Source: Clostridiales bacterium (GTDB lineage: Bacteria; Bacillota; Clostridia; Oscillospirales; CAG-272). Taken from it: a stretch of 64,000 nucleotides of DNA. The stretch covers positions 115,135-179,134 of the forward strand of contig JAAWDG010000011.1 in the NCBI GenBank assembly GCA_022793655.1, read 5' to 3'. The notes beneath the pieces are model-generated. The model searched no databases. It was not told where the DNA came from and was given only the letters and a program-made list of their open reading frames with translations. A program made the translations under genes and the position numbers. Shown piece after piece: positions 1,122 through 29,244 of this stretch (position 1 is its first letter; the number at the start of each line of letters is the position of its first letter).

Positions 1122-1250
1122 TGGTATACTATGATAAAATAAGAACAAGCCGTATGGCTTGTTCTTAAAAAGATTGACTTGCCACCCATTAGGTGGTGAC
1201 ATTCCGGCAGAGCCGGAAACGCCAATCTTTATGGTAGCAGAAACTTTATA
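1122..1250 (+). repeat. Structured intergenic element copy E1 (hairpin-linker-hairpin-TGACA-hairpin, three-way junction)
   Basis: TGGTATACT at 1122-1130. Hairpins at 1141-1166, 1182-1196 and 1202-1218. Closing helix 1169-1176/1223-1230. 1197-1218 is 21/22 identical to 26208-26229. Confidence 0.6.
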
Positions 1251-1357
1251 ATAAAATAAATTTTATATCATGTAGTTTGCCTGACCGATTCGCTGATGTA
1301 GTTCAATTCTTCGACGGCGGGTATTTTTGTTAGCGTAATGTGAAGGGGGTGTGCACG

Positions 1358-6093: not shown

Positions 6094-6207
6094 GCGTAGA
6101 GCGGCTTTTTTCTTTTTGTCAGCGTATGAGGTTTAAAATATAGGATGTCTGGCGTTTGTTGCACGCGGTAGGAACTATGGCAACGTTTTACGTTGGACTT
6201 TCAAAAT

Positions 6208-6241
6208 AAAATAAGAGCAAGCTTTTGCTTGCTCTTATTTT
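6208..6241. terminator. Bidirectional terminator (XRE gene / vanT)
   Basis: aaaataagagcaagc tttt gcttgctcttatttt, with A/T runs on both sides. Confidence 0.6.
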
Positions 6242-8354
6242 ATTGAATAAATCGCTCTAATCGACTACCGAGACGACTAAGAATTTCATTTGTGATGGTA
6301 TGTGTTTTTTCGGCTAGTTCATAGGCAGAAATTTCTTGATTTTCGGAATGACCAATCAAAACAGCTGTATCGCCAGCAATTACTTGTTCGGGAATCTTGC
6401 TAATGTCAACTATGGTTAAATCCATGCAGATTTGCAAAATGGGCGCTTCATAACCATGCAGCAGCACGCGCCCGTGCGACTCACCAAGCATACGCGGCAG
6501 ACCGTCGGCATAGCCAATTGAGAGAATGGCTATTCTTTTTTCACCGTTTGCTGAAATTTGATTGCCGTACCCGGCTGTTTCGCCGTTTTGCAGTGTTTTA
6601 GTCGACGCCACACGTGCCTTTAAAGATAACACAGCCTGTAATGGTATCGGACAAGTTTCGCTGTCTTGTCGGCTGCTAAGGAGGCCGTATAGCGCAATGC
6701 CAATGCGCGCATAGTCTCCGGTGCAGTCTGGGAAATAGAGCAAGCCATAGCTTGCCTGCAAATGTGTTTTAGGAATTTTATATCTTTCTTCTCGAAGGTG
6801 TTGTAACAAATGCTGGAAGTGCTCGTTTTGTGCCAACGTTCGTGTACGGCCCTCTTGCGTGTTTTCTGCCATGCTGAAATGAGTGCATATTCCTTCAATT
6901 AACAGGTGCTTCATATTAAAAATTTGGCGGATTTCCGATCGGTTTTCAGCTGGTTCACCGAAGCGATGCATGCCTGTATCAATGCCTATGTGTACATGAT
7001 AACGTCGGCCATCTTGGTTTAGGATATGAGCATATGAGACGTCAACGATTGTCTGTATGAGCCGATAGCGCCGTAAAAGTATAAAATCTTTCGGATGGGT
7101 ATAGCCAAGTACTAAGATTTTCCTTCGAAAGCCTTGTTTACGCAGTTCTGCGCCTTCGGACGCGGTGGCGACGCAGACAATAGCGATTTCCTGCTTTTGC
7201 AGTTCTTTGGCAATCAGTGCTGCACCATGACCATACGCATTCGCTTTTAATACGGGCATAAGGGCACAATTGTCAGGCAGTTGTGCGCGAAGCGCTGCTA
7301 TGTTATGAAGCAGGGCGGTGCGGTCGAGCTCAATCCATGCCCTGCCTTTTGTCAGGACAGGTTTTGCCAGCCTTATACAAAGGTAGCTTATAGCCACAGA
7401 GAACCCGAAAGAGACAACACAAACCGCTATAAAATGAATCAAACTATTTTGAATCAATAGGTTTTGAAGCGCGGATCGTTTCGCAAGGGCTCTGACAAAG
7501 AGAATGGCAAGTGGGTGCAAAATATAAATCCACATGGACAGCAGACGGCAATACGGCAATGGTCTCACAGGAAGAGCGCATAAAAATGAAAAGAGAAGAA
7601 ACAAGACAGGAATCAAAAAAAGATACATACTGTCATGCCTTGTCTGGTGAAATTGATGCAGAAGAAGTCCCTCGCTTATTAAAAATAAAACGGAAAGAGG
7701 GAGGAAAGCGGCGCATTGCCGGATGGTAAGCGTCTGCCGATTACGAATCGCCGCGCCGAGGGTTATAAAAAATGGGGCGAAAAACAATCCGTTTCGGGTG
7801 TATGAAAAGATACGAAAGAGTGGTTGATAGAAATAATGATCAATGGGCGTACCCCTTACAAAGCCAAAATAGCTATCGCCCAATAGTCCGATCAGATAAA
7901 GGCCAAAGGTAATGAGAATGACTGGTTTTAACGGGAGGTGTTTGCATAAATAATAAACGAACAATATACCGGTTATGCAAGCAGGCAGATACCATAAATG
8001 ATAAAATGTACCGTCCCACAAAAGCATTTGAATGGCTTGGGCGATTGTCATGGGATCGAAATGACCGGCGTAAATACCAATCGGCAGATAGAGAAGGATA
8101 GCCGCGATATAGAGCAGTAGATTTTTGCGGATAAAATGCCAAGGAGAAGGGGCGCACAGGACAAAGAAACCGCTGATCATAAAAAAGAGGGGCACCGCGA
8201 TTCTTGCTATGATACGTGTCAGAATTAGATCGACAGTTTCGCCAAAACAGAGAAGCGGGCCAGTGTGAATAGCGACTACTAAAAACGCGGCAACGAGTCT
8301 GGCAAGGTCTAAAGCGCCGTAGTTTTTTGATGGATTAACGGTGCAGTGCGTCAT
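6240..8354 (-). CDS. vanT: VanT-type membrane-bound serine/alanine racemase (acyltransferase_3 membrane domain + PLP racemase)
   Basis: N-terminal LVAAFLVVAIHTGPL polytopic domain fused to an alanine-racemase-like C-terminus (VLKANAYGHGA). Last gene of the van cluster. Confidence 0.85.
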   Translation of the reverse strand: MTHCTVNPSKNYGALDLARLVAAFLVVAIHTGPLLCFGETVDLILTRIIARIAVPLFFMISGFFVLCAPSPWHFIRKNLLLYIAAILLYLPIGIYAGHFDPMTIAQAIQMLLWDGTFYHLWYLPACITGILFVYYLCKHLPLKPVILITFGLYLIGLLGDSYFGFVRGTPIDHYFYQPLFRIFSYTRNGLFFAPFFITLGAAIRNRQTLTIRQCAAFLPLSVLFLISEGLLLHQFHQTRHDSMYLFLIPVLFLLFSFLCALPVRPLPYCRLLSMWIYILHPLAILFVRALAKRSALQNLLIQNSLIHFIAVCVVSFGFSVAISYLCIRLAKPVLTKGRAWIELDRTALLHNIAALRAQLPDNCALMPVLKANAYGHGAALIAKELQKQEIAIVCVATASEGAELRKQGFRRKILVLGYTHPKDFILLRRYRLIQTIVDVSYAHILNQDGRRYHVHIGIDTGMHRFGEPAENRSEIRQIFNMKHLLIEGICTHFSMAENTQEGRTRTLAQNEHFQHLLQHLREERYKIPKTHLQASYGLLYFPDCTGDYARIGIALYGLLSSRQDSETCPIPLQAVLSLKARVASTKTLQNGETAGYGNQISANGEKRIAILSIGYADGLPRMLGESHGRVLLHGYEAPILQICMDLTIVDISKIPEQVIAGDTAVLIGHSENQEISAYELAEKTHTITNEILSRLGSRLERFIQ

Positions 8355-9123
8355 GGGTATTCCTCCATTCTGTTAACACAAAACCGTCGATGTTATTGCC
8401 AGAGATAATATATGGCTTGTCAGTGCGAACAACGATTTTTGTGTTTTGGTTTTTTGATGCCGGTATATAGGAAATGAGAATTGTTTCATGCAAATGCGTA
8501 TTGTAGATAAAGGGTTTGTTTCTTGCATCGTTTTTTAAAAATTCCATATATTCTTCAAGTGTGAATCGGTTTTGCGTTATAATGGCCGCATGCGGAATGC
8601 CAACATAGCGAAAATGCCAAGGTTCATAATCAATGTGTGTAATGAATTGCTTTTCTTTTGGATAGCGTTCAATAAATCCGAACCAGGGCGCTAATTTACG
8701 AAACACTTGACAAAGACCAGTATCAGGAAAGGCGGGACGAATGAAGTCAATAGCGCCGTCTATGGGTGTTCCAAGGTCAATGGCAAGACCTGTGTGATGT
8801 TCGCTTTCACCGGGGGCCGCTACATAGCGTTTGGTAAATGCTTCACCATGTTCGGCAACTGATTGTTTATAGAGAATCGTTTGTTCTTGGATCGAGCGCC
8901 AAGCGCTGACAGGCACAATTTCTTGCCAGCCGTTGATTTGCTGCATAAGGCTGTTCAGCAGAGCAGCCGCTCTCTTTTCTAAAAGGATGGAGGAAGCGTC
9001 TGCTGTTACAGGAACTAAGGCGGACGGATTTGAGGTAAAGGGAGTACCTTGACCAACGACAATCAAAAATCCGGTGTGTACTTGCTGGGGTGTAAGTTCA
9101 ATGATCTTTTTGCTTTCTTTCAT
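8335..9123 (-). CDS. vanXY: D,D-dipeptidase/carboxypeptidase VanXY (peptidase M15B)
   Basis: SEHHTGLAIDL (SxHxxGxAxD) and EPWHFRYVG (ExxH) zinc motifs. Overlaps vanG and vanT. Confidence 0.8.
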   Translation of the reverse strand: MKESKKIIELTPQQVHTGFLIVVGQGTPFTSNPSALVPVTADASSILLEKRAAALLNSLMQQINGWQEIVPVSAWRSIQEQTILYKQSVAEHGEAFTKRYVAAPGESEHHTGLAIDLGTPIDGAIDFIRPAFPDTGLCQVFRKLAPWFGFIERYPKEKQFITHIDYEPWHFRYVGIPHAAIITQNRFTLEEYMEFLKNDARNKPFIYNTHLHETILISYIPASKNQNTKIVVRTDKPYIISGNNIDGFVLTEWRNTHDALHR

Positions 9124-10181
9124 GACTGTGCCCCAAGCGCGGTTTCAATTACTTTTGTGATGATTTCTGTGTAGGAGTATCCCGCGGCTATCATCATTTT
9201 TGGAAAACGGCTTTTGTCGGTAAAACCAGGAATCGTATTGATTTCATTGAACAAAATGTCACCGTCAGGCGTGAGAAAAAGATCAATTCTGGCAAATCCG
9301 CGGCAGTCAAATAATTGATATAGGGCGATGGCTGTTTGCCTTATTTGTGCGGCTTGCGATTTAGTGAGGCGGGCAGGCACATGAATTTGGGCATTTTTAA
9401 GTGAATATTTGGTCTCGTAATCAAAAAATGATTTTTGTATCTCAATTTCATCGATTTCGCCAATCGTAAGAGAACATTCTGGATTCCCCATGATCGCACA
9501 GCCTAATTCAACTCCTTCTATATAAGATTCAAACACCGCTTCACAATCATACGAAAAAGCAAGTTTAGCTGCACTTGGCAAATCACGTCGATATTCCACT
9601 TTTGTGATGCCGAATGAAGAACCAGCACGAAGGGGTTTAACCATAAGGGGGTAGCCAATTTCTTCTCCGATTTTAAAAAGAGATGTTTCGTTGGTGCTTT
9701 GATGAATTAAATGGGTCCTTGGCACTTTAATGCCATGTGATAAAGCGAATTGATGGGCACGATACTTGTCCATACATAGGGCTGAACAAAGAGTGCCGCA
9801 GCCAATTAACGAAATGCCTGTTAATGCTAAAAGCCCTTGCACAGTGCCGTCCTCACCATTTTGGCCGTGCAGCAGCGGTAAGGCTGCGTCAATTTCAATC
9901 AATTGTGTTTGTTTGGCTTCTTGAACCATAATCTTATTTTGCTTTATGCCAGGCATAATGCTCACAGGTTTACAGAAAGCTGACTGCTGCCATTGATCTT
10001 GGCTGATTAGATCGATTGGTCCTGTGTATAAAAACCATTCGCCTTGTTGGGTTATTCCGATGCATATGGGATGGTACAATGTTTGATCAATATGAGAGAT
10101 GACTGAAGCAGCCGAGCTAAGAGAGACTTTGTATTCAGGCGAAGCACCGCCGAACAAAATCGCAATATTTCTTTTTTTCAT
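9120..10181 (-). CDS. vanG: D-alanine--D-serine ligase, VanG-like (ATP-grasp Ddl family)
   Basis: MKKRNIAILFGGASPEYKVSLSSAASV Ddl N-terminus and ATP-grasp C-terminus. Lies between vanRS and vanXY-vanT. Confidence 0.8.
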   Translation of the reverse strand: MKKRNIAILFGGASPEYKVSLSSAASVISHIDQTLYHPICIGITQQGEWFLYTGPIDLISQDQWQQSAFCKPVSIMPGIKQNKIMVQEAKQTQLIEIDAALPLLHGQNGEDGTVQGLLALTGISLIGCGTLCSALCMDKYRAHQFALSHGIKVPRTHLIHQSTNETSLFKIGEEIGYPLMVKPLRAGSSFGITKVEYRRDLPSAAKLAFSYDCEAVFESYIEGVELGCAIMGNPECSLTIGEIDEIEIQKSFFDYETKYSLKNAQIHVPARLTKSQAAQIRQTAIALYQLFDCRGFARIDLFLTPDGDILFNEINTIPGFTDKSRFPKMMIAAGYSYTEIITKVIETALGAQS

Positions 10182-10273
10182 TTTTATTCACCATACTTTC
10201 TATCTGTTTTTATGAAGCAGATTCATATTCTAAATATCTGTTTCGCTATTTAGCTTATTTTGAGTATAAGAAA

Positions 10274-10301
10274 AACCTCTGGTACAATCATACCAGAGGT
10301 T
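10274..10301 (-). terminator. Hairpin after vanS (terminator-like, overlaps the vanG promoter spacer)
   Basis: 11-bp stem aacctctggta/taccagaggtt. On the minus strand it is followed by tttttcttatact. Confidence 0.5.
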
Positions 10302-10350
10302 AAAAGAGAACGCTTTTTGATTTTTTCAAGGTTTTCTATTTTTTTTATTC

Positions 10351-10372
10351 TGAAATTCTTACAATTTTCTAA
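10351..10372 (-). promoter_or_regulatory. Tandem 11-bp direct repeats, candidate VanR (OmpR-type) boxes
   Basis: Minus strand reads TTAGAAAATTG TAAGAATTTCA, contiguous with 11-bp phasing, between the vanS stop and vanG. Confidence 0.35.
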
Positions 10373-10402
10373 CAAATATCGTTTTTTAGACAAAGAACCC
10401 TT

Positions 10403-11461
10403 TCAAAGGGGCAGCCGAACGGTGAAAGTGATGCTTTCGTTTTCGCTTGCCGCCGTGATTTGGCCGTGGTGCAGTTCTACAATTTCTTTGGCAATCGCAA
10501 GGCCAAGACCGGCGCCCCCGGTTGAGGTGGCGCGCGCGGCGTCTAATCTGAAAAACTGATCAAATAATCGGCCTAATTTTTCAGACGGAATTGTTTTGCC
10601 TGTGTTCTGCAGAGTAATTACTGCTTGTTCTTGTTCAGTTGTGGCTGAAAGCGTAACCATGTGATTGGCATAACTATAGGCAACCGCATTGCGTACTAAA
10701 TTATCGAAAACCCGGCCTATTTTATCTGGGTCACCGAGAATGTATAACGACTCCTCAATGTCGAGCTGCCATTGCAGACCCTTTTCGGCTAAAATAGGTT
10801 CAAATTCGCTGGCTATCTGTTTTAGCATAAAGCTGAGGTTAATGCGGCTGCGCTCTATCGTGAGATGCGTTAGGCTAAAGCGGGTAATGTCAAAAAATTC
10901 ATTTACTAAATCTTCTAATCGTTCGGCTTTGGTGAGTGCAATGCCGATATAGCGTTCCCGCAGTTCGTCGGATATTTGTTTTTCGTCCCGTAGAAGGGAA
11001 AGGTAACCAATAACGCTGGTGAGCGGTGTTTTTAAATCATGTGCTAAGTAGACAATTAGATCGTTTTTACGCTGTTCGGCCTCTTTGGTGCTGGCGGCTT
11101 GTTTGATCGCTTGTTCTCTGACTAAATTAAGCTCATCCTGCACCTCTTTTAATTCTTCAGATAAAATAATGGGCCTTTGCGATGGCTCTGCTAACTGATC
11201 AGAGGCGTCAATAATTTCGTCTAAATAGCGAAGAGGCTTTGCAATGAAGATGTAAGAGATGACGGCGCCGCCGATCAGCAAAAAGAAACTGCCCCATAAA
11301 AGAATGTTTTCTTCAAACCATTTTAGCAAGTGATAAAGGGGATTTCTGTCATGCCAGATAAACATCCTGAAAAATACGTTAGCTAACCAATAGCATACAA
11401 TAAACCCCACAACCAGCAAAAAAAGGGATAAGAGAAAGCGAAACAAAAGTTTGCGTGCCAT
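10403..11461 (-). CDS. vanS: Sensor histidine kinase VanS
   Basis: H-box YLAHDLKTPLTS and G-boxes GGAGLGLAIAKE. Start is uncertain: ATG at 11461 gives MARKLLFRFLL..., and the track GTG at 11524 overlaps vanR. Confidence 0.8.
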   Translation of the reverse strand: MARKLLFRFLLSLFLLVVGFIVCYWLANVFFRMFIWHDRNPLYHLLKWFEENILLWGSFFLLIGGAVISYIFIAKPLRYLDEIIDASDQLAEPSQRPIILSEELKEVQDELNLVREQAIKQAASTKEAEQRKNDLIVYLAHDLKTPLTSVIGYLSLLRDEKQISDELRERYIGIALTKAERLEDLVNEFFDITRFSLTHLTIERSRINLSFMLKQIASEFEPILAEKGLQWQLDIEESLYILGDPDKIGRVFDNLVRNAVAYSYANHMVTLSATTEQEQAVITLQNTGKTIPSEKLGRLFDQFFRLDAARATSTGGAGLGLAIAKEIVELHHGQITAASENESITFTVRLPL

Positions 11462-11498
11462 TTTGCTTTGCAGCTTACGCACATTATTTGTCTTTATT

Positions 11499-12188
11499 TT
11501 ATTGTTCAATCGTATACCCCACACCCCATACGGTTTTGATGTATTTTGGTTTGCGCGCCGGTTCTTTCATTTTTTCACGCAGTCTGGCGATATGAGCCAT
11601 CACGGTGTTATTGCTGTCTAGGTATTTATCGCCCCATACGGCTTCAAAGAGTTCTTCTGAGGAGACAACATGTCCTTTGCGTTCGCAAAGATACCAAAGA
11701 ATATTGAATTCAATCGGCGTTAGTGACAACTCTTCGCCGTTTAACAGGCATTTGTGGTTATCTTGACAGATATAGAGTCCTTTATGGTCATATTCAGTTG
11801 GTTGAGATTCGGTTTTGTTATAACGGGTATAACGGCGAAGCTGAGTTTTAACTCTGGCCACTAATTCAAGCGGATTAAAGGGTTTGGTCATATAATCATC
11901 GGCGCCCAGTGTGAGTCCGGTGATTTTATCAATGTCCTCAATTTTCGCTGTCAGCATAATAATAGGGAAAAGATATTTCTCTCTAATTTGCTGACAGAGT
12001 GTGAACCCGTCCAAATCTGGCAGCATGATATCTAACAGCGCTAAATCAATTGTTTCTTGCGCAAGACAGGCAAGAGCGCTTTGCGCGTTATAAAACTTAT
12101 ATACGTTAAAATTTTCATTTTTAAGATAGACTTCTATTAAATCAGCGATTTCTTTTTCGTCATCTACAACAAGAATGTTCTGGCTCAT
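11499..12188 (-). CDS. vanR: OmpR-family response regulator VanR
   Basis: Receiver LVVDDE...DLALLDIMLPDLDG plus winged-helix C-terminus TVWGVGY. RBS aaaggaa. Confidence 0.85.
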   Translation of the reverse strand: MSQNILVVDDEKEIADLIEVYLKNENFNVYKFYNAQSALACLAQETIDLALLDIMLPDLDGFTLCQQIREKYLFPIIMLTAKIEDIDKITGLTLGADDYMTKPFNPLELVARVKTQLRRYTRYNKTESQPTEYDHKGLYICQDNHKCLLNGEELSLTPIEFNILWYLCERKGHVVSSEELFEAVWGDKYLDSNNTVMAHIARLREKMKEPARKPKYIKTVWGVGYTIEQ

Positions 12189-12265
12189 AGCATGTTCCTT
12201 TCATTCATAGATGGTGTGTCTTTTGTGATAGCACATTATTAAAAGTATGGCGTTTCGGCGGGGAT

Positions 12266-12362
12266 AACATTCGGACGTTTTTAGCTATGTCAGCAGGCAG
12301 CCCTATTGGCTGCAAGGTAAACTTTCTAAGAATAACCAGATAGGGTTATTCTTATTATAGCA
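12266..12362 (-). repeat. Structured intergenic element copy E4 (in the vanR upstream region)
   Basis: Minus strand: TGCTATAAT, hairpin aagaataacc/ggttattctt, linker AGAAAGTTTACCTTG, hairpin gcagcc/ggctgc, CTGCTGACAT. 16-mer ATTCTTAGAAAGTTTA is identical to 26405-26420. Confidence 0.55.
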
Positions 12363-12642: not shown

Positions 12643-12718
12643 TGGTCGGAGTGACAGGATTCGAACCTGCGGCCTCAACATCCCAAATGTCGCGCGCTAC
12701 CAACTGCGCTACACCCCG
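12643..12718 (-). tRNA. tRNA-Pro (anticodon UGG), CCA encoded
   Basis: Reverse complement CGGGGTG...TTTGGGA...GGTTCGAATCCTGTCACTCCGACCA. Cloverleaf with 7-bp acceptor stem; anticodon loop is TT-TGG-GA. Confidence 0.95.
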
Positions 12719-12769: not shown

Positions 12770-12919
12770 TACACAAAAGTGCAAGTAATTTTTGATTTGT
12801 AAAAATGAAATTATAACACGAATAAGGCAGTCCGATTAGGCCAGATATTGTAAAATATGCGGTCTTGTGGTATACTTAAACGAGAAATTGATTAAATATA
12901 AGTGATTCATGAAGAATTT

Positions 12920-13010
12920 GTCAAATATGGTCGGCGTTTCTTGCGAAATGTCAGTGATTATGTTAACATAAGAATAAATCTAAAAGTTTCATCTTAGAAA
13001 ATTTGTTTTT
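12920..13010 (-). repeat. Degenerate element copy E5
   Basis: Minus strand: TTAGATTTATTC linker, ttatg/cataa hairpin, TCAC TGACATTTCG..GAAACGCCGACC. Compare E1: TGACATTCCGG...GAAACGCCAATC. Confidence 0.35.
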
Positions 13011-13167
13011 TCGCTTATATAAGCAAAATTCCAGCATAGCTGGTTGGACGAAACGCTATAAAATGATAGCATTTAGGGAAATACTATTATATTCAATTTG
13101 ATCGAATCACTTGTGGTCAAATCTTAATTTGCTACTAAGCTTTAAAATTGAATTTGGCGGAGAAAAA

Positions 13168-14664
13168 ATGATTTGTAAAAAATGCGGACAAGAAACGAAT
13201 AGCAACGATGCTTTTTGTGCTCACTGTAAAGAGCCTTTAAAAAAGAATATGATGAGTCGGGCGTTGGATACACTTAAACAAATGCCGCTTCGCAATTGGC
13301 TGTGTGTTATCATTTTAGTACTGGCGCTTGTAATTGCCGTGTGGGTTTTAGCTTATAGTTTTCGGCCAGGACCTTTTTCATCCAAAACAGTCACAATTAC
13401 TTGTGTTGAAGATGGAAAAGATACAGTGTTTTTTTATAATGATAAGCTGTTAGAGGGAACTTTTTCGGGCGTCATGGTAAATTCATCTACTTCTATGTAT
13501 GGTGATTTGCTGGTGTTTATGACCGAACAGGACGAGTTATATATGGTCAATAAAAAAGGATTGTACCTCATATCCAATAATGTAGCCGCCTATCGAATGG
13601 CTTCTTATGGCGGCGGTCTTGCTTATGTCAATTCAGAGGGAGAGCTTTTCCGTTTTACTTGCAAAAACAAAAAAACAAAACAAATTGATACAGATGTGCT
13701 CGATAGTCATATCAGCGTTTCTTCGGGCGGCGATGCAATTGCTTATCTAAAAAAAGAGGCTGATAGCGAAGTTATGTATTGCTTTTCTGGTAAAAAGACT
13801 GAGCGGTATGCTGAGGATCGAACGCCGGTGGCTGTGTCGGATGGATTAAAGCATCTTTATACAGTTGATGGATCTATGAATTTATATTATACATCCGGCG
13901 GAAAAGAGACAGCGGTTTTTCGTAACGTAGCTAATACTTTTGCATTTGATAACGATTTTTCAGATATTTTGTTTTATGCTGATTCAGGCAGTTATTTGTT
14001 TAAGCCAGGAAGTGAAGCTACACTGGTATCAGATGCAATGGTTGATTTAGTTTGTAGCGTAGAATTGGCCAGTTATAGAAGTAATCCTTCATTTTCGATG
14101 GATACTATTATCGTGTCTTATGGCATTCGTACCTTTGCTAATAAGTTTTATGCAGACATTAATCAGAATTTGCATTATGTAGGAAGAAAATATCAATCAT
14201 CTTTAATCGATACCTTGGTTTCAATGCCAATGGTCAATGATAAAGGCAGTCGTGTTTATTACGTGAAAGACTTTAATTTAGTTTCTTCCACATCAAAAGG
14301 AAAGACCAGCGTATTAGCTAAAGGCATTGCCAGTTATCATATGACAGGAGATGGCCGCTATCTATATTATATGGATCAAAACAGTGTTTTATGGGGAAAA
14401 CGAGGCAATCTGAAAGCTAAGAAGATAGCCGAAGCAATCAATATCGTTCGCCAAAGTGGCCGTGATTATTTGTTTTACACGATACAACGGGATGGTGTAA
14501 ATGACTTATATGTCATTCGCGGTGTCTCAAAACCCAAGCTCTTGTGTGAAAATGTGAGCAGTTTTTCGGCTGCTGCAGGCTCGGCTTATTATGAAGAAGC
14601 GGGCAGTTACTATTTTAGTAGTGGAAATAGTAAATTCAAAAAAATATATGCCAAAGCAAAATAA
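13168..14664 (+). CDS. Zinc-ribbon / single-TM / large extracytoplasmic repeat (propeller-like) protein
   Basis: MICKKCGQETNSNDAFCAHCKEPL, TM WLCVIILVLALVIAVWVLAY, then ~410 aa of Y/G-rich strand-like repeats. ATG at 13168 follows ggcggag; the track start at 13111 is unsupported. Confidence 0.65.
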   Translation: MICKKCGQETNSNDAFCAHCKEPLKKNMMSRALDTLKQMPLRNWLCVIILVLALVIAVWVLAYSFRPGPFSSKTVTITCVEDGKDTVFFYNDKLLEGTFSGVMVNSSTSMYGDLLVFMTEQDELYMVNKKGLYLISNNVAAYRMASYGGGLAYVNSEGELFRFTCKNKKTKQIDTDVLDSHISVSSGGDAIAYLKKEADSEVMYCFSGKKTERYAEDRTPVAVSDGLKHLYTVDGSMNLYYTSGGKETAVFRNVANTFAFDNDFSDILFYADSGSYLFKPGSEATLVSDAMVDLVCSVELASYRSNPSFSMDTIIVSYGIRTFANKFYADINQNLHYVGRKYQSSLIDTLVSMPMVNDKGSRVYYVKDFNLVSSTSKGKTSVLAKGIASYHMTGDGRYLYYMDQNSVLWGKRGNLKAKKIAEAINIVRQSGRDYLFYTIQRDGVNDLYVIRGVSKPKLLCENVSSFSAAAGSAYYEEAGSYYFSSGNSKFKKIYAKAK

Positions 14665-25800: not shown

Positions 25801-26084
25801 GCGCGCCACAAGATAACTGCTTTTTCTCCATTGGTTACATAATCGTATTTTAGTCCGCCTACGGCACGGAACACGGTATTGGCTAAACGGCGGAAGCTAA
25901 GCACCTGTACATGCAAAGAAAGACTGTCGTTGCATTGCTCTGACAGTCTTCTCTCACAAGAGAGTACAGCTTGTTCCGGCACTAAAAGAAGAACATTCTT
26001 TCCCTCTTCGGTGCAGGTTTTTATGGTTTGATCAATCAGTGTGCTTTTGCCCGAGCCGCTTGATCCATAAATAAACTGAATCAT
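22842..26084 (-). CDS. addB: ATP-dependent helicase/nuclease subunit B (AddB)
   Basis: N-terminal GSSGSGKST. C-terminal nuclease IVDYKTG and Fe-S cysteines C...CAYCDMKPIC. ATG at 26084 (MIQFIYG) follows agaaagg. Confidence 0.85.
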   Translation of the reverse strand: MIQFIYGSSGSGKSTLIDQTIKTCTEEGKNVLLLVPEQAVLSCERRLSEQCNDSLSLHVQVLSFRRLANTVFRAVGGLKYDYVTNGEKAVILWRALTTIAPFLQKYRGVTLKERSFFTEMVACMDECKAYCVTPAKLEEAADALTEVHTPLAEKLRDLSLLFAAYQSAMQNEFDDPADDLTLLLEKLPQADFLSSYTIMIDSFYGFTGVEFAIIATLFTQCADCFITLPYDRTENIMYHSLRQTDLTLRRAAKASGQEIRPDILLNQHPRFKNEELAFLEQHLWHFAALPYEKSPDHIQLIRANDLYEEAEFIATDIKRKVRQGKRYRDFAVITRDLEHYTGVIDAVFEKHCLPAFLSKRIDITLMPSVKLILCALSICIYNWRLDDVITYIKTGVCGLAPDECDLLENYAVTWGITGRRWIDEFEWNMNPAGYTEILTEEGASQLQKVNELRLRVREPLLAFFACFDKDATVQSITEQLYAFINQIDFAAGLRDKSKSSTEGTQVWNALMHCLDRLVYCAKDTKATPEVYRDLLTIILTEATIGKIPFFVDEVIIGDASLLRLHDVKDVYVIGATEGSFPKAATESSIFSDGERRTLKSLGITLSDPSDIKNAEELFFFYKSISTASENITVSYPKATLAGKGLSPSLGVIRLEKLFPKLTALDADKQPALDLIEDYDSAFEWAAYYHGTPFGNALLHFYQSDPAYTARIESLNTPISNIQNHLSESFAEELYGGNLHVSQSRLDTFAKCEFSYHCKYTLGLQSAKSPEFKSVDIGNFMHMLLERFMNQICQDGHMDLTISFSDCKHMVDEIITEYLRRVLRDKQQISARLQTLIKRLRRTALLLIENILDEFRHSDFRPAFFELAISEPKSQAALCVSPYAVTLPDGKQIYLYGKIDRVDCYQKDGNVYIRIVDYKTGVKNLSLDLIEKGQEMQMLLYLFAIWKTKDQAFLDKLGTAQGHILPAGVQYYIAKASSLKLDNPQNAQDIYEEAKKKIIRNGILLKDDDILFAMDKTGTGQYLSKEVRTLEQFGEMVSLIENNICELGSQIKSGTANAKWNGDPAQPCAYCDMKPICRKEQ

Positions 26085-26143
26085 TTGAATGATTATGCCT
26101 TTCTTTGCATCTGTGTCAACAGACACAAAATTTTATACGTCTT

Positions 26144-26312
26144 TGGTGTAATGAAACAAAATAAAATAGAGATTTGTTTCTAAAATTTATCTTGTCCCCA
26201 TAAGGAATGACATTCCGGCAGAGCCAGAACCGATAAACTTTGAGGTATTGGACTTTTTGTGATATAACGAAGACACCATGAAACGAGTGCGAACATAGCA
26301 AGGTGTCTTTTT
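26144..26312 (+). ncRNA. Element copy E2 with its own -10 box and terminator (candidate ~155-nt sRNA)
   Basis: TGGTGTAAT at 26144-26152. Hairpin 26153-26180. Linker TAAAATTTATCTTG. TGACATTCCGGCAGAGCCAGAA. Closing helix 26182-26191/26232-26241. agacacc...ggtgtct+ttttt at 26271-26312. Confidence 0.45.
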
Positions 26313-26352
26313 AAAAATTTACCGGCAAAGTGCGCATTTTCTTATATGTTAC

Positions 26353-26460
26353 GGTGTAATACAAGGAAATCCACGGGCTATCTATAAGAATAGCCCTCAC
26401 GGGCATTCTTAGAAAGTTTATCTTTTGGCTTTGCCAATTTGACGGAATGTCGTGCTGTGA
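26353..26460 (+). repeat. Element copy E3
   Basis: GGTGTAAT at 26353-26360. Hairpin aagaat(a)gccc/gggcattctt at 26386-26410. AGAAAGTTTATC. Hairpin ttggc/gccaa at 26425-26437. TTTGACGGAATGTC. Confidence 0.5.
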
Positions 26461-26510
26461 GAAAACTGAAAAATTATGGAATCATATGAATTGCAGTGTT
26501 TAAAAGTCAA

Positions 26511-28502
26511 TTAAATATCCGCATTAGATAAATATTCATGGCCATGCAGGGTAATAAACTCTTTACGGCCGGGTAGGTCGTCGCCGAGCAGTGTATCAAA
26601 AATTTTCGCTGTCTTTTCTGCATCCGCTTCAGAAATTTGAATTAAGCGTCTGGTGGCGGGGTTCATCGTGGTTTCCCACATCATGTCCGGTTCGTTTTCA
26701 CCTAATCCCTTGGAGCGCTGCAAAGTGTATTTTGCTTTGCCCAATTTATCTGTAATTTCTGTTTTCTCCTGTTCGGTGTAAGCAAAATAAATATCGTTTC
26801 CGCAGGTGATTTCATAAAGCGGCGATTCAGCAATGTAAACGCGGCCTCGTTTAATAAGTGTGGGCAGCAGTCGATAAAACATGGTCAAAATTAATGTTCG
26901 GATCTGAAAGCCGTCTTCGTCGGCATCGGTACAAATAATAATTTTATTCCATTTCAGCATATCGTAATCGAATTTGGCTATGTCCGCTTTTATTTTTTTG
27001 TCGAGCTCTACGCCGCAGCCAATGACACGAAGCAAATCAACAATAATGTCGCTTTTGAAAATGCGATCGTAAGAACTCTTTAAACAATTCAGGGTTTTTC
27101 CTCGAACTGGGATGATCGCCTGAAATTCGGCGGCTCTGCCAAGTTTACAAGAGGTAAGGGCAGAATCTCCCTCTACGATATAAAGTTCTCTTTTTTCAGG
27201 ATCTTTAGAACGGCAGTTGACGAATTTTTCAACCTTGTTGGCAATATCCATTTTGCCGGTAAGGTTGACTTTCACCTTGATACGGGCGCTTTCGGCCGAT
27301 TCACGTGAGCGTTTGTTAATTAGCACTTGATTGCCGATTTTTTCGGCCTCTAACGGATTCTCAATAAAATAAATTTCTAATTTTTCCTTTAAAAAGGAGG
27401 TCAGCGCTTCTGCGATGAATGTATTGGTAATTGCCTTTTTCGTCTGGTTCTCATAAGAGGTTTGGGTAGAAAAACTGTTCGTTACTAAAATCAGACAGTC
27501 CTCGACGTCTGCAAAGGTGATTTTGCTTTCGTTTTTGTTGTAACGGCTTTGTGCCTTGAGATATTTATCAATGGCGAATACAAAAGCGTTTTTAACCGCT
27601 TTTTCAGGTGCACCGCCGTGCTCCAAAAAGCTGGAGTTATGATAATATTCCAGCATTTTAGCTGTGTTGGAAAAACAAAAAGCAACCTCTGCCTTTAACT
27701 TATATTCTTTTTTATCGGCACGGTCTTTACCTGCGGTTTCTAAGTTCCATAAAACAGGTACAGTGAGCGCTGTTTCCCCCGCGGTCTCTTGCACATAATC
27801 GCCAATGCCGTTTTCGTAGAAAAATTCGTAGTTCTCAAACCCTTTTGCGGTTTCAAAGCGCAACACAAAGGTAATGCCTGCGTTTACAACTGATTGGCGC
27901 TTAAGTATGTCTAAAAAATATTCTTTGGGAATGGCAATGTCGGTAAATACCTCAAGATCTGGTTTCCAATTGATCATGGTACCGCTTTTTTGCTCAGCGC
28001 CAATCGCTTCTTTTTTGGCAAGTTCACCTTTGGGTTCGCCTTTTTCAAAATTCATTTCATAGACAAAACGGCCGTCTTTTGAGACGACATGCATATATTC
28101 AGAAGAGTATTGGGTCGCGCAAGCACCAAGACCATTGAGCCCTAAAGAATATTGATAGGAAGCACGGTCCGAATCATTGTTGTACTTGCCGCCTGCGTAT
28201 AATTCGCAGAAAACAAGTTCCCAGTTATATCGTTGTTCTTTTTCATTGTAGTCAAGCGGAATACCGCGTCCAAAATCCTCGACTTGCATGGAATGATCTG
28301 CATAAACGGTCATAATCACCTTGCTGCCAAAGCCCTCTCTTGCTTCGTCAACTGCATTGGAGAGGATTTCAAATGCCGAATGCTGGCATCCCTCAAGACC
28401 GTCTGAACCAAAAATAACGGCGGGGCGTTTTCGGACACGATCGGCTCCTTTTAACGAGGTGATACTGGTATTGCCATAATTGTTATTGGGGATAGATGAC
28501 AT
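26511..28502 (-). CDS. Type IIA DNA topoisomerase subunit B (GyrB/ParE family, divergent)
   Basis: GHKL ATPase FEILSNAVDE, LGLNGLGA, Toprim ELYIVEGDSA, and C-terminal KGLGE. No A subunit in the window. Confidence 0.8.
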   Translation of the reverse strand: MSSIPNNNYGNTSITSLKGADRVRKRPAVIFGSDGLEGCQHSAFEILSNAVDEAREGFGSKVIMTVYADHSMQVEDFGRGIPLDYNEKEQRYNWELVFCELYAGGKYNNDSDRASYQYSLGLNGLGACATQYSSEYMHVVSKDGRFVYEMNFEKGEPKGELAKKEAIGAEQKSGTMINWKPDLEVFTDIAIPKEYFLDILKRQSVVNAGITFVLRFETAKGFENYEFFYENGIGDYVQETAGETALTVPVLWNLETAGKDRADKKEYKLKAEVAFCFSNTAKMLEYYHNSSFLEHGGAPEKAVKNAFVFAIDKYLKAQSRYNKNESKITFADVEDCLILVTNSFSTQTSYENQTKKAITNTFIAEALTSFLKEKLEIYFIENPLEAEKIGNQVLINKRSRESAESARIKVKVNLTGKMDIANKVEKFVNCRSKDPEKRELYIVEGDSALTSCKLGRAAEFQAIIPVRGKTLNCLKSSYDRIFKSDIIVDLLRVIGCGVELDKKIKADIAKFDYDMLKWNKIIICTDADEDGFQIRTLILTMFYRLLPTLIKRGRVYIAESPLYEITCGNDIYFAYTEQEKTEITDKLGKAKYTLQRSKGLGENEPDMMWETTMNPATRRLIQISEADAEKTAKIFDTLLGDDLPGRKEFITLHGHEYLSNADI

Positions 28503-29168: not shown

Positions 29169-29244
29169 TGGCTGCGGCACTAGGATTCGAACCTAGGAAA
29201 TGACGGAGTCAGAGTCCGTTGCCTTACCGCTTGGCGATGCCGCA
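29169..29244 (-). tRNA. tRNA-Gln (anticodon CUG), CCA encoded
   Basis: Reverse complement TGCGGCATCGCCAAGCGGTAAGGCAACGGACTCTGACTCCGT...GGTTCGAATCCTAGTGCCGCAGCCA. U1-A72 pair and a D-arm near-identical to E. coli tRNA-Gln. Confidence 0.93.

Follow-up and report, generated by a model that had tools for sequence, protein, structure and literature searches.

The intergenic DNA considered here raises the question of whether it encodes a free-standing RNA. In the 64,000-nt stretch of DNA that was analysed (the window), an element designated E2 lies between two minus-strand genes, addB and a gyrB/parE-like gene. A database protein of 1080 aa with 100% identity supports the addB start at 26084, the gyrB/parE-like gene stops at 26511, and the spacer between the two genes is 426 nt long. 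A sequence-only reading had described a box, a hairpin, a linker, a core with its closing helix, and a second hairpin followed by a T run, all of which were found at the positions in Table 1. From these parts it had derived a free plus-strand sRNA of ~155 nt, which would run from TGGTGTAAT to the hairpin at 26271-26312 and act in trans. It had correctly placed E2 between minus-strand genes, and its term "orphan" was apt insofar as no plus-strand gene lies downstream. We favor a different answer, to which we assign a probability of roughly 60%: E2 would belong to a small interspersed repeat family of the BOX/SPRITE kind that is specific to this lineage, as a copy in decay that was inserted together with a second one, E3, and it would be no plus-strand sRNA.

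Table 1. Positions of the family copies, their parts, and associated features in the window
Feature	Position	Strand	Remark
Family unit			shared by all copies: ATAAGAAYA, P0, TRTTCTT-AGAAAGTTTAYCTTG, second hairpin
E1	1139..1262		best-preserved copy; P0 1140-1167; junction 1169-1236
E4	12240..12355	-	directly downstream of the conserved vanR promoter
E5	12968..13056	+	degenerate; within the 5′ leader of gene 13111..14664
Direct-repeat copy 1, GAATCATTTGAAT	26078..26090		holds the functional addB start codon
Promoter-like TTGACA-16-CATAAT	26092..26119	-	11/12; directly upstream of addB; site lacking in the sister
Box TGGTGTAAT	26144-26152	+	read directly in the sequence
Box GGTGTAAT, taken as -10 by the sequence-only reading	26145..26152	+	part of the repeat unit; recurs at 26353-26360 ahead of E3
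E2 P0, whole hairpin	26153..26180		46.7 bits with model R1
E2 P0 arms gaaacaaa / tttgtttc	26153-26160 / 26173-26180		12-nt loop
E2 linker	26181-26194
E2 three-way junction core	26182..26241	-	complete pairing on the minus strand only
E2 P1, closing helix	26182-26191 / 26232-26241		9/10 pairs
E2 P2	26196-26199 / 26204-26207
E2 core TGACATTCCGGCAGAGCCAGAA	26208-26229		22 nt
E2 joiner TGACA	26208-26212
E2 P3	26213-26219 / 26223-26229
Long-loop hairpin with T4-5 run, taken as terminator by the sequence-only reading	26270..26312		arms agacacc 26271-26277 and ggtgtct 26302-26308
E3	26353..26470		second copy, in tandem with E2 and in the same orientation; 54.8 bits
E3 parts			GGTGTAAT 26353-26360; P0 26386-26410; linker 26411-26425; P2 26425-26437
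E3 collapsed P3 remnant TGAC-GGAATGTC	26440-26451
Direct-repeat copy 2, GAATCATATGAAT	26479..26491		20 nt from the gyrB-like stop

A dispersed family of structured repeats

With up to one mismatch allowed, the window contained the E2 core at two positions, 1197 and 26208, where 100 shuffles gave an expectation of 0, and the copy at the first site, E1, was 73% identical to E2 across 60 nt. Judged by these counts, the likeness of E1 and E2 is well past chance. Looser searches of the window recovered E3, E4, and E5, and the sister MAG GCA_022791195.1 contributed two further copies, sE4 and sE6, so that the family has at least seven copies. These were counted in ~109 kb from the two sister MAGs, and the statistics on copy number and orientation are thin. 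A covariance model of the shared module, R1, scored the seven copies at 46-60 bits and gave no further significant matches in 167 kb of related DNA.

All seven copies share ATAAGAAYA, the hairpin P0, the stretch TRTTCTT-AGAAAGTTTAYCTTG, and a second hairpin whose sequence varies in nearly every copy, with a conserved linker of 17 nt between the two hairpins. The inner domains are unlike between copies; therefore, the family is modular. The 8-mer GGAATGTC was confined to copies of the family, with E3 and sE4 having it in direct and E1 and E2 in inverted orientation, a distribution that fits a putative ancestral long P3 palindrome that would have decayed differently in each copy. In sE6 (sister MAG, L017 19272-19500), P0 is nearly that of E1 with one compensatory change from G-C to A-U, while the inner domain differs from that of E1 and is closed by a 9-bp helix. 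Like E2, sE6 lies between two minus-strand genes and opposes both neighbors. Both orientations to the neighboring genes were seen in the family (three loci versus two), which is what random insertion of a repeat would give. The copies are dispersed, intergenic, shorter than 200 bp, extensively structured, and of narrow range with presence/absence differences, as is characteristic of small interspersed repeats.

The fold of E1 comprises a 12-bp P0 followed by a compact three-way junction (z = -5.2 to -8.1), in which P1 (AAAGAUUG/CAAUCUUU) encloses P2, the joiner UGACA, and P3 (UUCCGGC-AGA-GCCGGAA). E2 has the same layout with a different P1 sequence, in which two pairs were changed on both sides, from A-U to U-A and from G-C to A-U. 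Across the family, 5/12 pairs of P0 were altered on both sides, and the P0 covariation score of 0.345 compared with 0.143 for shuffled alignments (reached by 0/500), all slid controls being lower as well. The P2 hairpin, 3-6 bp long, has its own sequence in each of E1-E5 and sE4. Every copy folded better than its shuffles (z from -1.4 to -8.1), and the three-way junction was common to two copies only, E1 and E2. RNAalifold recovered only P2 and P3 from the E1 and E2 pair, because MAFFT had offset the two P1 strands by one column.

The ortholog of E4 in the sister MAG, sE4 (L017 6009-6120), carries compensatory changes in P0 and P2. Since E4 is orthologous in both MAGs and differs by such changes, the family is old and its pairing has been under selection; the compensatory changes of E1/E2 and E4/sE4 alike show selection for pairing. 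The family copies are ~65-75% alike with compensatory changes, and for this reason their sequences mark them as something other than recent transposition products. E4 lies exactly at the conserved vanR promoter (TCGAAA-17-TATAAT with TG), next to a vanG-type glycopeptide-resistance cluster on the minus strand (window 6240-12188) that comprises vanR, vanS, a D-Ala-D-Ala ligase, VanXY/VanY, and the serine racemase VanT. An E4-like leader was absent from more distant vanG clusters. The bidirectional vanT terminator (AAGAGCAAGC...GCTTGCTCTT plus ATTTTATTTT; window 6205-6238, L017 12120-12155; d +14 to +27) is nearly identical in sequence to E1 P0, which hints that the repeat hairpin may derive from an ordinary terminator. 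Two tRNA genes, at 12646-12718 and 29172-29244 (minus), adjoin differences in gene order from the sister MAG, one being the E4/E5 region and the other the yxeA-murD gap, in which the sister carries an additional 2061-aa gene.

A chance likeness or an assembly artefact is so improbable an explanation as to be negligible. The source is a MAG and its intergenic DNA is AT-rich, which would favor such an explanation, but the 22-mer was found twice against none expected, and the seven copies have covarying hairpins. Moreover, E1 was identical in an independent assembly of run SRR11195283 (a 961-bp contig) and is therefore no artefact.

Searches for known relatives were negative throughout. Rfam 15 at the gathering threshold returned tRNAs only, with no match at E1, E2, sE4, or sE6, and at E ≤ 10 it gave only noise over E1 and E2 (E ≥ 0.2). 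An exact 18-mer search of one genome per species gave 13 matches in unrelated taxa, mostly in coding DNA, which is the level of chance. A degenerate pattern of P3 plus TGTCA had at least 120 metagenome matches and 6 viral-contig matches, none with the family context, and the linker 15-mer and the P0 pattern gave chance matches or none in viral contigs. Searching E1 and E2 with blastn against plasmids and phages returned nothing meaningful, and no family copies were found in L015, L016, L265, or L266. Among the collections scanned, the family thus appears confined to this bacterial lineage. Several other identities were tried and rejected. Small conserved ORFs on either strand were dismissed by eye since the frames vary between copies; hammerhead, tRNA-like, and group II domain V structures, since their core motifs are missing (by eye) and Rfam was negative; and a sigma-70 promoter formed by the linker (TTGACT) and TGACAT, since the spacing varies between copies. 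The P0 3′ arm with the linker (UUCUUAGAAA) contains a 10-nt motif that presumably recalls the rrn boxA of Firmicutes; no rrn operon was found within the window.

Strand and transcription of E2

Nothing that was computed supported the free-standing plus-strand RNA with its own -10 box and terminator. As a promoter, TGGTGTAAT is only extended -10-like (TGnTGTAAT, a fair match) and has no -35, and the promoter scan called none on the plus strand. The contained box GGTGTAAT recurs 208 nt downstream ahead of E3 and therefore belongs to the repeat unit. Initiation from the box at the usual spacing of ~7 nt would fall in the 5′ arm of the hairpin, and consequently the hairpin that had been counted in the RNA would not form.

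The proposed terminator scored d = -25.6 on the plus strand (d'Aubenton-Carafa) and -42.9 on the minus strand and was not flagged by the terminator scan, whereas two control terminators, the vanT terminators of these genomes, reached d = +14 to +27. Its T run at 26308-26312 has just four T beyond the stem, which are followed by AAAAA. The hairpin at 26262-26322 was more stable than its shuffles on both strands (z = -2.9 plus, -3.4 minus), and the sequence of this putative terminator is not common to E1. Since the comparable hairpin and T run downstream of E1 are host sequence, as in the sister, and lie outside the element, the terminator is no feature of the family.

Pairing within the E2 junction was strongly asymmetric between the strands. 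The E1-type junction of E2 formed 21 pairs without mismatch on the minus strand (-14.5 kcal/mol), as compared with 17 pairs and four A·C mismatches on the plus strand (-5.7 kcal/mol). All four mismatches are A·C and read as G·U on the minus strand, where pairing is complete. The 177-nt E2 region gave z = -0.8 on the plus strand and -3.8 on the minus strand, and the E1/E2 consensus fold gave -4.75 and -11.0 kcal/mol, respectively; this strand call depends on four G-to-A changes, which under neutral decay have a chance of 1 in 8 (two-sided). P0 had the better terminator score on the strand opposite to that of the sequence-only reading in 7/7 copies, with d > 0 in 2/7 copies, E1 (+7.5) and sE4 (+1.3), both on that opposite strand. 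In E2, P0 is an A/U-only degenerate form of the family hairpin and a poor terminator on both strands (d = -30 opposite, -80 on the strand of the sequence-only reading). E1, E4/sE4, and E5 lie downstream of host promoters that are conserved in the sister and, therefore, are transcribed as 5′ leaders in the orientation that the sequence-only reading had proposed. The strand evidence is consequently mixed for the family, and for E2 it points away from the plus strand.

These results leave the plus-strand sRNA quite unlikely. The order of box, hairpin, junction, and hairpin with T run mirrors that of E1 on the same strand, the long-loop hairpin exceeds shuffle stability, and other copies are transcribed in this orientation, all in its favor. 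However, it would have to accommodate a start within a hairpin arm, a four-T terminator of strongly negative score, a mismatched junction, and the absence of E2 from three relatives, where a sRNA gene would be expected to be conserved at its locus. Listeria SreA and SreB are orphan riboswitches that act as sRNAs and come from a proven, widely conserved aptamer class. The plus-strand model would work in the same manner, as a leader-type RNA that ends at a terminator with no gene behind it, but unlike SreA/SreB, E2 has neither a ligand class nor wide conservation, and its terminator is unconvincing. E2 is most likely no dedicated plus-strand sRNA gene.

A related possibility is that the E1/E2 junction is an orphan riboswitch-like aptamer for some ligand; E1 would then govern the esterase operon, and E2, as a spare copy, would serve as a decoy or act in trans. 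The junction is compact (~60 nt), with covariation in P1 and P2 and conservation of P3 and the joiner TGACA, and in both copies it is followed on the plus strand by a hairpin and a T run. We nevertheless regard this as very improbable, as the junction occurs in just two copies and is mismatched on that strand in E2, the genes adjoining the copies are unrelated in function (esterase, vanR, an unknown protein, addB), and neither an Rfam match nor a relative was found in the collections scanned. In addition, the orthologous esterase leader of the sister has no junction, yet keeps an attenuator-like hairpin of its own. This leader hairpin with its U-tract lies just upstream of the Shine-Dalgarno sequence of the esterase operon (window 1276-1330; L017 17040-17100, minus), differs in sequence between both MAGs, and may be an attenuator independent of E1. 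The extended -10 TGGTATACT is common to two unrelated promoters, those of the esterase operon (1122-1130) and of gene 13111 (12868-12876), and both promoters are kept in the sister MAG.

The asymmetry raises the alternative that E2 is, or was, a functional RNA of the minus strand, either a cis-acting leader or attenuator of addB (junction, then P0, then addB) or the worn remains of an sRNA gene of the E1 type (extended -10, junction, terminator). The complete pairing of the E2 junction on the minus strand only favors such an RNA, and TTGACT-18-TATGAT right past the gyrB-like stop could drive E3 and E2. At E1, the minus strand has TGATATAAA upstream (1270-1262), a junction with z = -8.1, and the P0 with d = +7.5 that closely resembles the vanT terminator. 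Furthermore, the P0 of sE6 was called as a minus-strand terminator 49 nt ahead of a gene start, and the P0 loops on this strand read GUGA, GUAA, and GUUA. Against this, the A/U-only P0 of E2 has a 12-nt loop and lacks a U tail, no conserved minus-strand promoter was found for E4/sE4, the inner domains vary among copies, and the sister and two outgroups have addB without the element. The loops on the other strand are of the UNAC type, which is also a stable loop class. We therefore treat a minus-strand functional RNA as a tentative and rather unlikely reading.

Insertion between the gyrB-like gene and addB

The sequence-only reading had suggested checking whether this intergenic region is empty in relatives and had mentioned a repeat insertion as a fallback, and it was this fallback that the comparison supported. 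In three relatives whose AddB proteins are 86%, 68%, and 58% identical, addB is separated from the gyrB-like gene by 145, 64, and 1 nt, respectively, versus 426 nt here, and neither E2 nor E3 was present in these relatives; the 145-nt spacer is that of the sister MAG. Against the NCBIfam models for gyrB and parE, the gyrB/parE-like gene itself (window 26511-28502, minus) scored well under either cut-off. Four genomes (the window, L014, L015, and L016) have it immediately upstream of addB-addA, and such a pairing of a topoisomerase B-subunit paralog with AddAB is unusual as well as conserved.

The E3-E2 block is bracketed by a 13-nt direct repeat with a 12/13 match, which was reached by 4/300 shuffles. 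When read on the minus strand, copy 2 is ATTCATATGATTC, which is exactly the addB start context of the sister MAG. This remnant addB start, followed by CAGTTT after a 10-nt gap (window 26455-26511, minus), would encode just M-I-P-stop, and it has TTGACT-18-TATGAT, just past the gyrB-like stop, as a promoter-like site of its own. E1 is likewise bracketed by 13-nt direct repeats (1130-1142 and 1247-1259; reached by 2/300 shuffles). It separates the esterase gene from the conserved esterase promoter, and it is gone from the esterase leader of the sister despite an identical promoter stretch of 38 nt just upstream. From the short E2-free spacers of the relatives together with the flanking direct repeats, we conclude that E2 is inserted repeat DNA.

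Counting against the favored reading, neither E1 nor the E3-E2 block has terminal inverted repeats at its ends. No such direct repeats flank E4, E5, sE4, or sE6. At 13 nt or more, the flanking repeats are irregular and long for a transposase footprint, and the geometry on the addB side is unlike a clean target-site duplication. The Shine-Dalgarno-bearing 45 nt by the functional addB start are 70% homologous to those of the sister, yet they lie inside the repeat-flanked stretch.

In the reading that we favor, the repeat unit would consist of the terminator-like P0, the conserved 17-nt linker, the second hairpin, and a variable inner domain, the latter closing into the predicted three-way junction in E1 and E2. 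A block of ~390 bp containing E2 and E3 would have been inserted into a very short spacer between the gyrB-like gene and addB, probably duplicating ~13 nt around the addB start codon, and it would have arrived after the split from the sister lineage. The relatives have the two genes side by side and probably on one transcript. If E2 is active at all, it would most likely be passive, on the minus strand and co-transcribed with its neighbors. The block would then add the minus-strand hairpins E3 P0, 26270-26309, the E2 junction, and E2 P0 to the transcript, and its fold may separate and partly attenuate or process the transcript that runs from the gyrB-like gene into addBA. In this case, transcription of addB would start from the strong promoter-like site located between E2 and the addB ATG (Table 1), which could offset the attenuation. 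The TTGACA-16-CATAAT site ends 8 nt short of the addB ATG, and an addB mRNA initiated from it would be leaderless or nearly so, bypassing the Shine-Dalgarno-like stretch AAAGAAAGG.

Comparison with known repeats and meaning of the family

Among known systems, the nearest counterparts are the BOX (modular) and SPRITE (terminator-like) repeats of pneumococci and MITE-like elements. BOX elements combine boxA, boxB, and boxC modules into composite small interspersed repeats (Croucher et al. 2011, PMC3049150). Repeats of these kinds are restricted to a lineage, are highly structured, occur in both orientations, and can change how genes transcribed together with them are expressed (PMC3049150). The family described here resembles BOX in having an intergenic unit of <200 bp in one lineage. 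It is also modular, with P0-linker-P2 in all copies and GGAATGTC/P3 in some, in either orientation, and it is strongly paired when transcribed, with copies in both orientations to genes and often co-transcribed with them. In contrast to BOX, there is no known sequence kinship, the family has no terminal inverted repeats and no candidate mobilizing IS, and its copy number comes from ~109 kb only. Its likeness to SPRITE is the terminator-like core hairpin with a U-rich tract, here P0 and its tail on one strand, as illustrated by the resemblance of E1 P0 to the vanT terminator. However, the hairpin here has 8-12 bp, which is ordinary terminator size, is joined to a linker and further hairpins, and passes the terminator score in just 2/7 family copies.

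MITEs such as Correia elements, RUP, and ERIC (reviewed in PMC3184786 and PMC10969869) share with this family their small size, AT-richness, and structure, the empty sites in relatives, and the direct repeats around the insert, and they can supply promoters, terminators, or RNase sites to adjoining genes. The family differs from them in lacking terminal inverted repeats, in its irregular flanking repeats of at least 13 nt, and in its copies being ~65-75% alike with compensatory changes.

These compensatory changes count against the repeat reading, since it is not obvious why a repeat that is purely selfish and in decay would need selected pairing, and they leave room for a genuine RNA function. 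A more novel account is a mobile RNA gene, in which the E1/E2 unit would have its own -10 box, a three-way-junction RNA maintained by compensatory changes, and a terminator, would copy itself, and would regulate the adjoining gene. It would insert promoter-proximally with target duplications of variable length, and its RNA, from either strand, might be antisense to the esterase or vanR leaders or act as an attenuator before addB. We consider this unlikely.

For the interpretation of bacterial intergenic DNA, the favored repeat reading carries a caution, namely that a tidy combination of promoter box, hairpins, and T run may be a selfish structured repeat and not a sRNA gene. Should complete genomes of this uncultured Clostridiales clade turn out to contain many copies of the family, it would provide a Clostridial case beside the pneumococcal, Neisseria, and enterobacterial repeats, and it would show such inserts splitting an operon, that of the gyrB-like gene and addBA, and sitting on vanG-type and esterase promoters.
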